Shown: positions 36,001 through 45,000 of the stretch, in pieces
How positions within the stretch are numbered: the first letter of the stretch is position 1
Layout: each line of letters starts with the position of its first letter
From: an uncultured delta proteobacterium
Lineage (GTDB): Bacteria > Desulfobacterota > Syntrophorhabdia > Syntrophorhabdales > WCHB1-27
DNA: 64,000 nt
Assembly (NCBI GenBank): GCA_963810935.1
Contig: CAWEPK010000012.1
Location: 192,001-256,000, forward strand
Direction of reading: 5' to 3'
Made by a program: the position numbers

Positions 36001-39000
36001 TTCACGGGAGAATGGGGTTTCTCCCAGGGGCGGACGTATTCCATCGTTATCTCCGTGTTCCCCTTGCCGACTGCCAGGAAAGTGAAGACGTCCTCGCCCC
36101 CGCTGCCTACACGCCCGCCTTCAAAGGCCGCATAATCCGATTTACGAGCTTTACGATTTTGTCGTCAGGGGGAGCGGCCGGCCGCCACATGTAGCCCGTG
36201 GTCCTGTTCGAGCCGAGCCTGACTGTGAATTCCTTCCCCTCTTCGGCCATCACGACGACGCTGATCTGCTCGTTCTCCTTGCGCGTCTCCTTCTTCTTCT
36301 GGGGAAGGTCCACCCGCAGGAAACGGATGCCCATGAGCTTGCCCGCCCTGTCGAAATCGAACGAGTAAAAGACCGTGCCAAGCACCTCGCAGGCGTGGCA
36401 GAAATTGCGCAGCGTATACGCCACGATGAAGCCCTGGCCGCCGTTCGGCAGCGTCTCGATCTGTATTGGCTGCCTGGGCGGCCTGTCGCCCGGCCACATG
36501 GTGACCCTCGGGTAGCTCTTCTTTATCGACGCGTAAGTCTTGTCCTGCTCCATGCCTTCTTTGGGGAGCAGCGTTATGTCGTCAACGTCCACTATCGGGG
36601 GGTCGCCGTTGACGAGGAGCAATCCATAGTTCTCGTTGGCCCTGAAGGGATAGACGACCTGGGCGATATCGACGCGCCCCGTCTCCCGGAACTTGCGCAC
36701 AAACGCCCCGCCGCCAAAGGAGCGCGTGAAGGCAGCGGCCTCAGGAGAGGCCCCCAGCTCGCGCATCGCGTCCGCGAAGCACTCTTCCAGCTCCCGCCCC
36801 CCGATATCGACGCATTTCTGCCGCGCGAGCAGCACGGTCTGCCTGTCGGCGTTCCATACGGCCTCCGCACTGACGGCCCTCACCGGCTGCTTTTCGGGCG
36901 TAAAATCAATGGCCTGCGCAGACGATAAAAAGAGAAAAGCAGACACGATGAATAATGAAAGTATTGCCGCTACGCGCACGATGCCTCCCACGGGCGCAAA
37001 AAAACTCCCCCTGGCACTACAAGGGGGATCAGGACAAGCGCCCGGCCATCTATTATGTGCCATAAAATACGGGTTTATTCAAGCAAAAGTTGATCATTGG
37101 GGCTCAGCACCCCCTCCACCGGCATCAGCCGGATGGAGCCTCCCTGCTCGGCGCTTCGCATGCGCTCGCTTTATACTCATGCCCCCTGCGCTTCCGCCGA
37201 GGGCCTTTTCCTGCTGCGTAGGTATTTGTAGCCCATCCAGACGCCGACGCCCACGAAGACGACCTTGAGGTACCGCTCGGGAAGCAGGTTGGCCGCCTCC
37301 CCGCCGAGGTACCCGCCGATCAGCGCGCCGGCTACGAGCCCGGCCACGACGTGCGTAGCCACGTTGCCGAGCTTGTAGTGCGTGTAGGCGCCGCTCGACC
37401 CTATGAATACCATTGCCAGCAGGGATGTCCCCTGGGCGAGGTGCTGCCCCATGCCAGCGAAGATCACCATAGGCGGCACCATGATGCCCCCGCCCCCTAC
37501 GCCCATCATGCCCGATACGAAGCCCGCGAAGACTCCCGTCACGGCAAGGACCAGCGTCTTCGGCCAGAAAGAGAGGGCAAGGCTCGTGTGGATAAGGTAT
37601 CCCTTGAGAAGGAGCGAGAGGGAGATAAACATGAGGAAGGCCCCGAAGGCCCGCTTGAGCTTCAGCTCCGGCAGGGAATGGGCATAGAGGGCGCCTACGC
37701 GGGCAGTAAGGATGGCGCAGACGGCCAAAAGGAGCGCCATCTTCCAATCGACGGCGCTGTGCAGCGAATAAGACAGCGCGCCGACCGCGCCGGTGAATAC
37801 GACGGCGACGAGGCTCGTCCCGTGGGCCTTGTGCTGGCTCACGCCGGCGAGCAGCGTCATCAGCGGCACCATAATGGCGCCGCCTCCCACGCCGACGAGC
37901 CCACCGAAAAATCCGCCTCCGAGACCTGCGGCCAGCCCCACGAGCAGACGGAGGCGGGCCGATTTTTCACCTTGCATCATGAGACGCCATTATAGCAATT
38001 ATTGGGGCTCGCGTCGCCCCCTCCAGCGGCATCAGCCGCATGGAGCCTCCCCTTCATGAAAAGGAAGAGGATTTGGGGGTTCTTATTACCCGGCCGGAGA
38101 CACGGGCGCCGCCTCGGGGACAACGGCCTGTCCCGGCCTGGCCATCTTTTTCAGCGCCAGCGCGCCAAAGCCTGATATTATCGCGGCCACTCCAATAACC
38201 GAGCAGCCGATGGTCCACCCAACCTCGAAACCCTGCGCTTTCGCATACGCCAGGGCAAGGGCCGTGATGAAGGTCGGCCCTATCATGCCGCCCACGCCCT
38301 TCGCCGTATAGACGATGCCGTAGTTCGTCGAGAGGTATTTCTCGCCGAAACGGTCGTCCGTGATGGGCGGGAAGAAGGCGAACATCGGCCCCGTGCAGAA
38401 GAAGGCCGCAGTCACCACGATCATGAAATAGTAAGGGTCGTGCGAAACGAACGGCAGGAGTATATAGAGAAGCCCGCACGCGATGAAGTCGATAAACATC
38501 GCGTTTTCCCTGCCGATCTTATCCGAGATCATGCCCCAGACAATCCTGCCTATGCCGTTTGCCGCTGCAAAAGCGGTAAAAGTGATGGTGAATATCGCGG
38601 CCGGGACCTTATAGTCGTTGGCCATCAGCTTGATGTTGGGCGTGAGGAACATGTATCCGACCGCCATAAAAACGAACATGAAGTACATAAGCCAGAACTG
38701 CCCGGTCCCCAGCATTTGCAACGGTGTGAGGCTCCTGGCCCCGGCCGCCTTCGCCTTGGCCGGACCGGCCGCCCGGCCGCCCGTGGTCTCGGGGAACCTG
38801 AGCACCTGGGCCACCAGGAGCAATATCACCGCAAACCCGATGCCCGTATAGAGGAATGCCGTCTTGCAGCCGTAATTTTTGACGAGGATCGTTATAAGCC
38901 ATCCGAAAAGGGCGGCCCCCGAGCCGAAGCCGCACGCCATGATGCCTGACGCCGTGCCCCTCTTGTTCGGGAACCATTTCAGCGAGGCCGCTATGCCGCC

Positions 39001-42000: not shown

Positions 42001-45000
42001 TCTATCCTTGGGTACCTTTATAGCCATGTGTCTCTCCTTTTCTTTAAGAATAGATGACCCTGCTGCAGGCAGCAGGGTATCCAGGGCACGAGCGAAAGCA
42101 AGTCTTTGAGGGGGAGGCTCCATGCGGCTTTGCCGCTGGAGGGGGCGACGCTAGCCCCAATAATTGAAGGCTCCATGCCTGAGCGTCCCATCATCAGCCG
42201 CCCCACGAGTAGAGCGACCTTTCTTTGCGGAACTTCTGGAGCTTCACCTCGTTGTAGCCGCGGTTCATAGCCGCCACGTCGCTGACGATCTTGGCCAGGC
42301 TCTCCTTCTTCACCATGCCCGTCACGCGCGCCATTGCACCGAGTAGGGGGGCCGCGATGCCTGCGCCCATGCCCGACGTATCCACGCCGCCTTCCGTCCC
42401 CGAAAAGTCGATCGTGCGGATCCCGGATATACCGTCCGCGTCGACCGTCGCTATCGCGCCCAGCACGTCCAGGTTCGGGATGAACTGGAGCATGTAATCG
42501 ATGGGCCGGGCGGTATTGATGATGAGGAGCCCTCCCTGCGGCATACCCTTAAGCACGTTGATGCCTTTCACGATGGTCGGCTCTACGATGACGACCACAT
42601 CGGGATTGGCGTTCATGTAAAGGTACTTCATCTCGATTTCCTCGTCGCTGATCCGCGCGTACTTCCTGGTCGTAACCATCACGCGGTCGGGGAGGTCCTC
42701 GTAGTTGTCGAAGGACTGCACGAACTTGCCTTCGGCCTCCGCTGCCTGGGCGAAGGCGTTGGCGACGTCGCGGGCTTCCTTGTCCATCACCACACCCCTT
42801 GTCCAGACCGTTATCTCGGTCACTTTAGCCATACCTCTTACCTCCTTTGATAAGGTTGTCGGAAACTCCGGATCGCACCGACTTCACGTTGTTCGCTTTC
42901 TTATTTCCGCTTGCCTCCCTTGCCTTCTTGAACAGGACGTCTTGCACGCCCGACAAGTGCCGGCGCATCGCCTGCCCCGCCGCCTCCTGGCTGCCTTCCT
43001 GTATCGCCGCCAGGACCTGCCTGTGCCCCTGCAAAGATTTCTGTCTCCGCTCTTCCGTCTGCGAATACCTCTCGCCGGCCTCCGCCAGGATACCTAAAAG
43101 CGCGAAGAGGAGCCTCTCCATGACCCTGTTGCGCGACATCTTGGCCAGCACCCGGTGGAACCTGGTGTTGGACATGTTGCTCCCTTTCGCCAGCTCCCTC
43201 TCCTGAGCCTCGACGATGCGCAGCAGGTCCGCGACCTGCTCCGGCCTCGCGTTCTTTGCCGCAAGCCGCGCGATCTCGGGCTCGATGATCTCGCGCACCG
43301 CAAAGACGTCGAGCAGGCTGTCTTTTTCCTGCACCAGGACGGCGGCGAGCGGCCCGACAAGCGCCTCTTCGCTCGACGCGATAACGTAGGTGCCGTTTCC
43401 CTGTCGCCTGTCCACAAGGTTCATCGTCTCCAGGGAAAGGATGGCCTCCCGGACGGTAAGCCTCGACACCTTGAACGTCTCGGAAAGCTCCTTCTCCACG
43501 GGCAACTGGTCGCCTTGCCTCAACCTGCCTTTCTCGATGAGCTTCCGTATCTGGTCTACGATGTCCTCGTAGGCACGCCTCTTCCTTACGGCCTTCAACA
43601 TGACCTGCCTCCCCCGAATTGACGGCCGTTGCCGGACTTCTTTGCAGCCGCTCTCTTTATAGCCTCTTCAAAAATCTCCTGCGTGATAAGCACCTCTTCC
43701 GGCCCTTTGGGGTCGCAGCCGTCGCCGATGCATGCAGTTATCGCCATCATGGCTGCGCTCCTGCACGCCGCCGCTATATCGGAGCCGGAGAGCCCATCCG
43801 TGAGCCCGGCCAGGTAAGCGGGGTCGACCCCCCGGCCTACGGGCCTGCCTCTCGTGTGGACGCGGAAGATATCCGCCCGGTCCGCCTCCGGCGGCATGGG
43901 GAACTCGAGGATGTAGTCTAGCCTGCCGGAGCCTGTAAGCCCCGGATCGAGCAAGTCGGGCCTGTTCGTTGCGCCGATGACGATCACCTGGGACAGACTC
44001 GCTTAAGTTATCGAGCTCGGTGAAAAGCTGGCTCGCCATGCGCTCCGCCACCGCCTCCCCCTCGGAGGAGACCGTGCGCGTCATTGCAAGGCTGTCTATA
44101 TCATCGAAAAAGAGTATGCATGGGGCCGACTGTTTCGCTTTCTTGAATATCTGGTGGAGGCCCTTCTCCGACTCGCCGAGCCACTTGGAGAAAAGCATGG
44201 AAACGCTGATGGAGATGAAATTGAGGCCCGTCTCGCCCGCGAGGGCCTTGGCCGTGAGCGTCTTGCCCGTACCCGTTGGCCCGGTAAAGAGTATGCCCCT
44301 CGGGGGCATCACCCGCGCGGAGGTGAAAAGCCCGGGATACTTGACCGGCCAGTCGATTATGGCTGCGAGCGCTTTCTTTATCTCCTTCAGGCCGCCTATG
44401 TCCTGCCAGGTGACATTTGAGCGCTCCGTCGATATCTCCCTGGTGGCGGTTGGCTCGACTGCCCTTAACCCTTTCAGGAAATCGTCCATGGTGATACGCA
44501 TTCCGTCGGCCGCCAGCTTCGCATCTACGGCGCCCCTTCCGTTTTCGAGCGACAGGTAACGGCGCACGGCCACCATGCCCGCCTCCTTGCAGAGTGCCTC
44601 GACGTCGGCGCCGACGAAGGCGTGGGTGATCGCTGCAAGGCGGCCCAGGTCAACGTCTTGCGCCAGCGGCATCCTCCGGCTGTGGATGCGCAGGATAGCC
44701 AGGCGGCCCTCTACGTTGGGGACGGGGATGACCACTTCGCGGTCGAAGCGGCCGGGCCTGCGAAGCGCGGGGTCGATAGTCTCCGGTATGTTCGTCGCGC
44801 CGATGACGACTACCTGCCCCCTGCGGACCATGCCGTCCATCAGGGCGAGCAACTGGGCCACTACCCGTTTTTCGACGTCCCCGAGCACTTCCGCCCGCTT
44901 CGGCGCTATGGCGTCGATCTCGTCGATAAAGACGACGCTAGGCGCGTTCTGCGCGGCCTCTTCGAAGATCTCCCGCAGCCTGGCCTCGCTCTCGCCGTAA

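Follow-up and report, generated by a model that had tools for sequence, protein, structure and literature searches.

The 64,000-nucleotide window analysed here, from an uncultured bacterium of the family WCHB1-27 (Desulfobacterota), very likely carries a repressor-controlled operon serving anaerobic oxalate use, with the predicted order cdc48-gntR-oorC (gamma)-oorD (ferredoxin)-oorA-oorB-MFS. The gene complement and its order, the conserved residues, the distribution and the presence or absence of electron sinks are direct observations, from which we infer the substrate, transport mode, regulation and electron fate of this oxalate operon. The survey's finding had placed gntR, a split delta subunit, oorA, oorB, an MFS transporter gene and tauE at 37177..43601. 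All seven genes are present on the minus strand as stated, from gntR (43601) to tauE (37177), but the operon begins 2.2 kb further upstream, with a promoter, an operator candidate and a Cdc48-type ATPase gene outside that interval, and tauE, which had been counted as an operon gene, has its own -10 box and looks separately transcribed. The features, including the subunits of the oxalate oxidoreductase (OOR), are as follows:

45810..45839, minus strand: sigma-70-type promoter heading the operon (TTGACA, 18 nt, TAAGAT; top score in the region, 10/12)
45791..45803, no strand: palindromic operator candidate for a GntR/FadR repressor (core CATC-T-GATG)
43595..45758, minus strand: Cdc48/VAT-type double AAA+ ATPase, first operon gene (Pfam CDC48_N and AAA)
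42825..43601, minus strand: GntR/FadR-family regulator (GntR and FCD; Pfam PF00392, PF07729)
42194..42832, minus strand: OOR gamma, domain III, equivalent to the N-terminal part of the Moorella delta chain (NF045790 245.9, cut-off 230 passed)
42108..42166, minus strand: REP-like intergenic repeat in the gamma/ferredoxin spacer (two hairpins, z -3.2)
41698..42027, minus strand: OOR ferredoxin subunit, domain V, 2x[4Fe-4S], equivalent to the C-terminal part of the Moorella delta chain
40493..41686, minus strand: OOR alpha, oorA (NF045791 555.5 bits, cut-off 500 passed)
39479..40465, minus strand: OOR beta, oorB, TPP and proximal [4Fe-4S] (73% to 5c4i_C)
38086..39381, minus strand: OFA-family MFS transporter, divergent OxlT-like subtype (best structure match OxlT 8hpj, E 1e-46)
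37996..38056, plus strand: REP-like intergenic repeat in the MFS/tauE spacer
37989..37994, minus strand: TATAAT box, 8 nt 5' of the tauE start, without a Shine-Dalgarno site
37177..37980, minus strand: tauE, TauE/SafE-family membrane protein (Pfam PF01925)
37095..37172, plus strand: REP-like repeat behind tauE

The identity of the enzyme as an OOR holds, and its catalysis is predicted. The identities to the Moorella thermoacetica enzyme given earlier were reproduced, at 219/392 positions for alpha (56%, 5c4i_A) and 217/299 for beta (73%, 5c4i_C), counted by eye from alignments to the PDB 5c4i chains. For each subunit, the Moorella chain leads the solved relatives by a wide margin (alpha, 491.6 bits versus 196.1 for the runner-up; beta, 512.9 versus 265.2; gamma, 204.2 versus 52.2; ferredoxin, 91.7 versus 58.5). 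The reported NCBIfam matches stood for NF045791 and NF045790, but beta missed NF045792 (567.8 versus a cut-off of 590; next family 324), a point absent from the earlier account; beta is likewise below this cut-off in two of three relatives tested. Since NF045792 is a library threshold and not a catalytic feature, our claim covers orthology and a likely function but does not extend to passing all three models. Substitutions relative to four family relatives fall mostly at third codon positions (for alpha, 97/130 to 202/274), which indicates purifying selection on these genes.

The alpha subunit keeps Arg31 (within FPIRP), Glu59, Arg109, Asp116, Phe117 and Gln211, with Arg31, Arg109 and Asp116 at their Moorella numbers. 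These three, Arg31 belonging to the PIRP motif, are given as the active-site residues distinctive of Moorella OOR in the part of PMC5020499 on which we draw. They are conserved in 81, 82 and 82 of the 82 related loci, respectively, and seven other alpha paralogues in the genome carry YPITP instead of PIRP. In gamma, WTRGVVMDK aligns to Moorella WARGVVMNK and there is no glycine-rich CoA-binding loop, while a gamma paralogue in the same genome has one (GRGGQG); the P-loop of domain III binds CoA in PFOR (PMC8091585), and among OFORs OOR alone does without CoA (PMC12337175). Gamma Glu147 corresponds to Moorella Glu154 of the plug loop and is Glu in 76/76 covered loci. Beta has Cys33/36/61/234, the GDG motif and Asn152, the equivalent of Moorella Asn143, so that the TPP motif (GDG...N) and the ligands for three [4Fe-4S] clusters are all present. 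The functional roles of OOR Glu59, Phe117, Gln211, Asn143 and Glu154 are assignments that we assume here. With its four subunits and its dependence on TPP and 3x[4Fe-4S], the enzyme would oxidise oxalate to two CO2 without CoA and would hand two low-potential electrons to ferredoxin. OOR is reportedly suicide-inactivated by pyruvate, as the title of one paper has it.

The delta subunit is divided between two genes with separate ribosome sites: gamma aligns to residues 13-208 of 5c4i_B, and the ferredoxin subunit, whose gene has two CxxCxxCxxxC motifs and its own Shine-Dalgarno site, aligns to 226-315 and covers positions 227-315 of the NF045790 profile. The split noted in the survey's finding is thus confirmed, but it is no special trait, as most loci have it (69 of 76, with fusion in 7). 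A chain in which domains III and V are fused characterises the single enzyme studied so far rather than the clade.

The closest known system is the Moorella thermoacetica OOR (PDB 5C4I, 5EXD, 5EXE; NF045790-NF045792), with which the operon enzyme has in common the equivalents of Arg31, Arg109, Asp116, Gln211, Asn143 and Glu154, three [4Fe-4S] sites, the lack of a glycine-rich CoA loop and the delta-alpha-beta gene order. It differs in its separate gamma and ferredoxin genes, FPIRP instead of YPIRP, a beta subunit below the NCBIfam cut-off and a Gram-negative uncultured host, and its activity is a prediction. PorCDAB pyruvate/2-ketoisovalerate:ferredoxin oxidoreductases (PDB 9BT4) have the same folds and separate gamma, delta, alpha and beta genes in the same order, but they carry YPITP and a glycine-rich CoA loop, and their alpha scores 283 versus 555.5 bits.

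The MFS protein is probably an oxalate importer, although it is classed as an OxlT-like OFA protein and not as OxlT. It scores 288 against the TIGR04259 cut-off of 335, which its subtype, the one furthest removed from OxlT, misses in 3/3 tested; other transporter subtypes in related loci exceed the oxalate/formate antiporter cut-off in 9/9 tested. OxlT Q34, Y35, Y124, N268, R272 and K355 are kept, Gln63, Gln66 and Thr38 are not, and the aromatic pocket is altered (Y150/W324/Y328/W352 are F/T/F/Y). OxlT cannot transport oxalate without R272 and K355, and in at least one assay the W324A change had no effect on transport (PMC10070484). The transporter would import oxalate held between the Arg and the Lys, as in OxlT of Oxalobacter formigenes (PDB 8HPJ, 8HPK; TIGR04259), a member of the same OFA family with the same basic pair. 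Unlike in O. formigenes, no oxc or frc partner gene is found here, and neither gene has a match over its cut-off in any of the 22 family genomes. The L-lactate transporter SfMCT of Syntrophobacter fumaroxidans (PDB 6G9X; NF049980), from the same MFS family, has the TM8 Arg in common but has Cys where OxlT and the operon protein have Lys; the match to it is weaker than to OxlT (88.9 versus 162.9 bits), and the score against the SfMCT family is 260 for a cut-off of 320. Among the family genomes, all 10 of 10 with OOR carry a close OxlT-like MFS gene, always adjoining oorB, against 1/12 without OOR (E<=1e-25). This linkage and the cut-off passes of the other transporter subtypes support oxalate use independently, through guilt by association.

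These deviations bear on the question of the substrate. An OOR-clade orthologue acting on another small CoA-independent substrate carried by the MFS protein (glyoxylate, oxamate, mesoxalate or a sulfo-2-oxoacid) seems improbable to us. It would fit a beta subunit and a transporter below their cut-offs, the altered aromatic pocket, the Tyr to Phe change in the PIRP motif, a Glu to Ser change two residues past Phe117, and a NAD-dependent epimerase/dehydratase-like gene of unassigned role in 35/82 loci. However, all residues named for oxalate binding in the consulted part of PMC5020499 are identical, YPIRP and FPIRP forms are intermixed in one clade (53 and 28 of 82 loci), and same-clade relatives pass all cut-offs tested (602 for the beta subunit of locus L129; 348-536 for transporters).

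In relatives, the transporter slot holds true OxlT-family proteins or a TTT importer. OxlT-family transporters occur in 37/82 related loci (with Arg and Lys in all 35 fully covered) and a TTT importer in 28/82, and no locus has both. The OxlT-family proteins would suit a CoA-free cycle resembling that of Oxalobacter, in which electrons from OOR turn CO2 into formate, while a membrane potential arises as the MFS protein swaps oxalate(2-) for formate(1-). This is a special case of our best explanation, differing in energy conservation, and we regard it as possible but rather doubtful. Two formate dehydrogenases in the genome, the absence of Rnf and the rarity of Ech in the family agree with it, as does the energy of oxalate conversion to formate and bicarbonate, which we take to be -27 kJ. 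Yet the loci with a TTT importer imply that antiport is not required for OOR, the listed neighbours of related loci include no recurrent formate dehydrogenase family, and the MFS subtype here is the furthest from OxlT.

Returning to the oxalate operon in its preferred reading, the OOR-type enzyme, a dicarboxylate importer, Wood-Ljungdahl genes and DsrAB occur in one genome, as had been proposed. The survey's finding tied the latter two to the oxidation of oxalate, of presumed plant or fungal origin, to CO2; OOR yields CO2 by itself, which leaves Wood-Ljungdahl and Dsr only as possible electron sinks. The genome has fhs, folD, cooS, acsB, acsC, acsD, acsE and a metF-like gene in one cluster (contig C16), two formate dehydrogenase alpha genes that both contain an in-frame TGA, and a six-gene Ech-like cluster with both NiFe motifs. 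Electrons would most plausibly pass to CO2 reduction via formate dehydrogenase and the Wood-Ljungdahl pathway, as in Moorella, and to an Ech hydrogenase able to pump ions. With the query used, Ech was found in only 2/10 family genomes with OOR, which, together with the lack of a detected Rnf in this genome, indicates that the energy-conserving step is not uniform. Among the 12 family genomes without OOR, acsB is present in 11 and dsrA in six. WCHB1-27 bacteria are treated as acetate and propionate oxidisers in one preprint, and the Wood-Ljungdahl pathway may accordingly operate in the oxidative direction. The candidate oxalate reactions are presumably all exergonic, at -25 to -83 kJ per oxalate.

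The linkage to DsrAB also raises the reading that oxalate supplies the electrons for respiration of sulfite or sulfate, which we consider unlikely. It draws on two copies of dsrAB plus dsrC and dsrMKJOP in the genome, dsrA in 9/10 family genomes with OOR, a TauE-family gene accompanying the cassette, and aprA in three of these OOR genomes (G013, G015 and, in two pieces, G004), with sat-aprBA-qmo adjoining dsrAB in G013. Sulfite and sulfate respiration would also be the most exergonic options, at what we take to be -83 and -63 kJ. Against this, sat and aprA were not found in the host genome, which is 93% complete, dsrA also occurs in family genomes without OOR, and TauE is not in the cassette outside the family. 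No ORF lies behind either dsrB, and nothing matched the small DsrD-sized ORF behind dsrB of G013; a Pfam DsrD search of the host genome was empty, though it matched no control either. Sulfite reducers mostly use DsrD (PMC10591310). With DsrAB present and sat, aprA and dsrD not found, sulfate would not be the electron sink of this genome, and sulfite via DsrAB would be a possible side sink.

Upstream of the operon, the TTGAC of the promoter is invariant in 10/10 aligned regions, although the count of sigma-70-type sites there is at chance level (4 versus 3.4 expected). The TCWGA core of the operator candidate is conserved 3' of the promoter in the same 10/10 regions and can be seen in most of a further set of upstream regions, and its palindrome, which we take to resemble FadR-subfamily operators, is a single site in the window. 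The gntR start overlaps the cdc48 stop, and the gntR stop overlaps the gamma start; the FadR-type protein would block the promoter at the palindrome until an inducer appears. At the other end, the TATAAT box of tauE is a probable leaderless promoter of its own, seen in the window and in 4/9 relatives shown, those where tauE follows the MFS gene. A tauE orthologue is found in 10/10 family genomes with OOR and 2/12 without, but any TauE match in only 13/82 related loci; tauE is a companion of the oxalate cassette at the family level, not part of it outside the family. The REP-like repeat between the gamma and ferredoxin genes is one of ~131 copies on 15 contigs and accounts for a spacer of 168 nt, versus ~50 in most relatives.

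The Cdc48-type ATPase would probably act as a helper of OOR, and such a gene is found in 64/82 related loci; we know of no client for it. Archaeal-type Cdc48/VAT ATPases (TIGR01243) resemble it in their layout of an N domain and two AAA modules, of which the first is intact here, but here the protein is bacterial, heads a metabolic operon and is frameshifted in the assembly, and the second Walker B is DD in 4/6 aligned Cdc48-type sequences. One extra base at 43997, missing from 5/5 aligned relatives, disrupts the reading frame within the second AAA domain: the N domain and first module are intact, the second module resumes in another frame, and the shortened product scores 669.5, below the TIGR01243 cut-off of 802.65. 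Such a frameshift may mean decay. That the operon is decaying, or serves detoxification only, in this strain would also accord with repeat insertions in two spacers and the absence of the cassette from 12/22 family genomes, but we judge it very improbable: the four enzyme genes, the MFS gene, promoter and operator candidate are all intact, the third-position bias is strong, and the assembly has other apparent frame breaks, 10 of them called in the 64 kb by a rough heuristic that is known to give false positives. Relatives G004, G012 and G019 have frame breaks inside oorA itself; these and the other assembly frame breaks are as expected of sequencing errors.

The cassette is found in 10/22 family genomes and, as reported before, in four genera, although the earlier count for alpha was 7/18. 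It also occurs in 3/74 genomes from other families of the order, where none of 22 had been recorded, and in several other phyla. It is therefore enriched in the family but not confined to it, and the trait is special neither to this family nor to Desulfobacterota.

What is known is the Moorella-type OOR; what is new is a further member in this host. OOR has so far been studied only in Moorella, and its route would escape the usual marker-gene surveys of oxalate eaters. Most likely, the predicted products of these genes enable an uncultured bacterium that avoids oxygen to import oxalate and cleave it to CO2. A broader joint reading, which we hold only tentatively and think unlikely as a whole, would see a large and so far invisible guild of CoA-independent oxalate oxidisers, comprising uncultured Syntrophorhabdales and many other bacteria of soil, peat and groundwater. 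Their enzyme would need a dedicated Cdc48-type ATPase for assembly or for release from dead-end TPP adducts, the family would gain energy through electrogenic oxalate:formate exchange, and three members would be able to couple oxalate to sulfate respiration.

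All seven genes ascribed to anaerobic oxalate oxidation by the survey's finding were recovered on the minus strand, where it had placed them. The reported identities to the oxalate oxidoreductase (OOR) of Moorella also hold, at 219/392 positions (56%) for the alpha and 217/299 (73%) for the beta subunit, counted by eye in the printed alignments, and for each of the four subunits the closest protein of solved structure is a Moorella OOR chain (PDB 5c4i). Among the NCBIfam profiles, the alpha subunit passed NF045791 (555.5 bits, cut-off 500) and the product of the N-terminal delta (gamma) gene passed NF045790 (245.9 bits, cut-off 230), while the ferredoxin gene matched positions 227-315 of the latter profile with 96.3 bits. 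The beta subunit scored 567.8 bits, under its cut-off of 590, with the runner-up family at 324.

The Moorella enzyme is set apart by its unique YPIRP motif, in which Arg31 lies, and conserves Arg109; Arg31 and Asp116 serve its mechanism, for which CoA is not needed (PMC5020499). The window alpha subunit aligns with FPIRP, Arg109 and Asp116 at numbering identical to Moorella, and seven other alpha-type paralogues of the same genome have YPITP. In pyruvate:ferredoxin oxidoreductase (PFOR), CoA is bound by a loop of domain III (PMC8091585), OOR being the exception that needs no CoA (PMC12337175). The gamma sequence WTRGVVMDK aligns with Moorella WARGVVMNK, a place where a paralogue has GRGGQG. 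Gamma Glu147 and beta Asn152 align with Moorella Glu154 and Asn143, and the set of Fe-S ligands is complete; these equivalents presumably carry functional roles. On motifs and scores, an ordinary PFOR or VOR was rejected. Judged from its sequence, the window enzyme is an orthologue of the characterised OOR. The beta score under its cut-off would leave room for a substrate other than oxalate; the motifs speak for oxalate, and we consider oxalate as substrate and OOR as enzyme very probable.

We compared 82 loci: 80 found by scanning 185,579 species genomes with a sequence pattern (118 relatives confirmed, the best 80 kept, a sample biased to close relatives), plus L028 and L029, leaving out repeats (L021-L027) and L030, the remaining half of a locus in two pieces. 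The PIRP motif was present in 81/82 (53 YPIRP, 28 FPIRP; one locus not covered there), and all 82 share Arg109, Gln211 and the DPPGDFGSEH loop. The gamma and ferredoxin parts are separate genes in 69/76 loci and fused in 7/76, so the split delta subunit is no rarity; one gene per subunit is also the usual arrangement in the wider enzyme family. A cdc48 gene lies within the locus in 64/82 cases, and 13 of the 18 loci that lack it have less than 4 kb upstream. Within the family WCHB1-27, tauE occurs in 10/10 genomes with OOR versus 2/12 without; it is rare outside the family (13/82 loci, four of these distant) and was rejected as a core gene. As separate observations, a gene resembling NAD-dependent epimerases/dehydratases (~310 aa, e.g. 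L044:13563-14489) lies near oor in 35/82 loci, with either transporter type; it passes no family cut-off and has no orthologue in the window genome (best 27%). In five betaproteobacterial loci (L069, L074, L081, L082, L108), a second, ordinary-looking 2-oxoacid oxidoreductase stands directly behind oorB, and no match to either importer type was found within the flank.

An OxlT-like MFS transporter was found in 37/82 loci and a TTT importer of the TctA type in 28, never together. Of the 17 loci with neither, 10 end at most 1.2 kb from oorB or before it. Transporter types are interleaved on a FastTree phylogeny of the joined alpha and beta matches (75 rows, 13 partial or broken loci dropped, midpoint root, without Moorella), a tree used for this point only, with no donor or event order claimed. 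The nearest row, whose enzyme is 92% identical, has another MFS subtype, 36% identical to the window MFS. Within the family, the OxlT-like MFS accompanies OOR in 10/10 genomes versus 1/12 without it. Arg272 and Lys355, which are essential in OxlT (PMC10070484), are kept in 35/35 fully covered MFS sequences. OxlT Trp324 is replaced by Thr in the window MFS subtype, which passes the oxalate/formate antiporter cut-off (TIGR04259) in 0/3 cases, versus 9/9 tested for other subtypes. The kept residues agree with import of oxalate; the Trp324 difference and the TIGR04259 scores count against it. Exchange of oxalate for formate by the MFS is a less likely rival reading. An AlphaFold model predicted from the MFS sequence alone had a mean pLDDT of 42.9 and was set aside.

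Upstream of gntR, and overlapping its start with the stop codon, lies a gene for a Cdc48/VAT-type ATPase. The sequence TTGACA-18-TAAGAT in front of this gene is conserved, as is a palindrome, in 10/10 aligned upstream regions. The surroundings are as follows.

37095-37172, 37996-38056 and 42108-42166: copies, in spacers, of a genome-wide REP-like two-hairpin repeat (~131 copies on 15 contigs)
43997, minus strand: one extra base in cdc48
45791-45803: the palindrome, a candidate operator
45942-55559: corrinoid methyltransferase cluster, immediately upstream of the oor promoter (DUF1638, MFS, URO-D-like methyltransferase, B12-binding protein, sigma-54 activator, pterin-binding protein, DctP)

A genome-wide search with the operator pattern gave 88 sites versus 45 in the control, too degenerate to define a regulon. 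The corrinoid cluster is no recurring oor neighbour; it could supply methyl groups to the Wood-Ljungdahl pathway. Since the TATAAT box 8 nt before the tauE start comes without a ribosome site, an arrangement shared by four relatives with tauE after the MFS, tauE is probably transcribed on its own. The extra base at 43997 is absent in 5/5 relatives, one of them ~98% identical in protein. It could mark decay of the operon, a less likely reading; third codon positions take most substitutions in the four family relatives compared, and we lean towards an error because similar breaks occur in oorA of relatives. A frameshift heuristic flags 43997 but also gene overlaps, so that the assembly error rate is not fixed by it. 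Apparent frame breaks also occur elsewhere in the assembly, in an AAA_13-type gene whose two frames overlap (33063-35235) and in an outer-membrane-like gene that lies in two pieces (31911-32653). A single metatranscriptome, available as contigs with a share of 0.06, holds a few short stretches 99-100% identical to oorA, oorB and tauE, most other matches being below 90%; these contigs leave 43997 uncovered, cannot show transcription, strand or level, and were not counted as support.

OOR is present in 10/22 family genomes, in four of six genera and at 81-97% identity; three of these carriers have oorA in pieces and one has it split over two contigs. Other families of the order, where 0/22 genomes had been reported to carry it, yielded 3/74, two over the cut-off. 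In a sample of the phylum, 15/401 genomes had matches at E<=1e-100, 10 of them over the cut-off including the window genome, and the other nine belong to five families. The best 80 of the 118 scanned relatives include Syntrophales, Syntrophobacter, Nitrospirota, Methylomirabilota/NC10, Myxococcota, Betaproteobacteria, Tectomicrobia, Deferrimicrobiaceae, one Bacillota and others. Of 6115 candidate clusters in a protein search, 1102 had E<=1e-80; some of the best 120 already bear the name oxalate oxidoreductase from NCBI or JGI. A plasmid search gave four records, each below 40% identity, and no mobile copy. A sister-clade alpha subunit (L135:7990-9171) has YPIRP but ALDDPGAFG, with Ala for Asp116, and scores 429 bits, under the cut-off. 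The observation behind the survey's finding stands, and its interpretation does so in part: with carriers outside the family, a family-specific trait is rejected, as is sulfate respiration by the window genome, in which neither sat nor aprA was found.

Besides these two genes, Rnf, FeFe hydrogenase, oxc and frc were not found in the window genome (completeness 93.5%, contamination 7.1%). It carries clustered Wood-Ljungdahl genes, two genes for formate dehydrogenase alpha subunits that contain an in-frame TGA, several NiFe hydrogenases resembling group 3, HdrABC-MvhD modules, and a six-gene cluster for an Ech-like hydrogenase that has both nickel motifs. The latter (L123:12240-17586) is followed by a group 3b-like hydrogenase and adjoins dnaA; the same query found it in 4/22 family genomes. 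Under the mechanism we propose, the operon would first be derepressed, oxalate would then be imported and oxidised without CoA to 2 CO2, and the reduced ferredoxin would serve acetogenesis and Ech-driven ion pumping, an electron sink of which we are less sure than of substrate and enzyme. Estimated from formation energies, the energy change per oxalate would be -25 kJ when H2 is the product, -27 kJ for formate, -51 kJ for acetate, -63 kJ if sulfate is the acceptor and -83 kJ if it is sulfite.

The last value would favour sulfite respiration, a less likely rival, as the sink, and the genome holds dsrAB twice (98.8% identical), dsrC and dsrMKJOP. Most sulfite reducers employ DsrD (PMC10591310); dsrD was not found in the window genome by a Pfam search that was silent in controls too. 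The two dsrAB copies (L114:10340-12680, L115:8033-10374) reflect either a recent duplication or a strain mixture: the copy on contig C8 is alone beside an IS200/IS605 transposase fragment, and that on C10 heads dsrC and dsrMKJOP. An element like a copy of the REP-like repeat stands directly after each dsrB, at the place of a small ORF of DsrD size in a relative. The 10 family genomes with OOR comprise 10 with acsB, 9 with dsrA, 3 with aprA and 2 with the window-type Ech, versus 11, 6, 4 and 2 among the 12 without; the acsB and dsrA counts therefore tie neither pathway to the cassette. Three family members, unlike the window genome, could in principle couple sulfate respiration to oxalate. Sulfate reduction driven by oxalate would be most likely in the same-genus genome G013, which has an oor cassette and sat-aprBA-qmo directly upstream of dsrAB (L122:8345-17413).

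Marker surveys of oxalate degraders have been built on frc and oxc, and an oxalate-using Desulfovibrio strain, 'oxamicus', dates from the 1960s. A literature search of incomplete coverage, without supplements, found nothing on oxalate-using Desulfovibrio, no report of OOR from Syntrophorhabdales, from WCHB1-27 or from metagenomes of soil, and nothing in print on a wide OOR spread in uncultured anaerobes, interchangeable importers or a Cdc48 partner. According to one review, oxalate is a common soil product of plants and fungi; its available text names Moorella alone for OOR and reports oxalate degraders from three phyla only (PMC11045627). The OOR pathway is mentioned in a gut survey (PMC12188714), and inactivation of OOR by pyruvate is known from a paper title given in PMC13768988. 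Members of WCHB1-27 are presumed acetate and propionate oxidisers in a preprint whose available text leaves oxalate unmentioned (10.1101/2024.10.22.619724).

OOR is not new in itself, and relatives are already so annotated. What the cassette adds is that nearly half of an uncultured family of anaerobes carries it, with oxc and frc in 0/22 genomes, and that relatives of the enzyme extend to Nitrospirota, Methylomirabilota, Myxococcota, Betaproteobacteria and others. The four-subunit OOR offers itself for biochemistry, its reverse reaction amounting to a possible CoA-free CO2 fixation, and OOR is a testable client for bacterial Cdc48. An oorA with PIRP and Asp116 provides a concrete marker, and oxalate a simple substrate with which to enrich such organisms.
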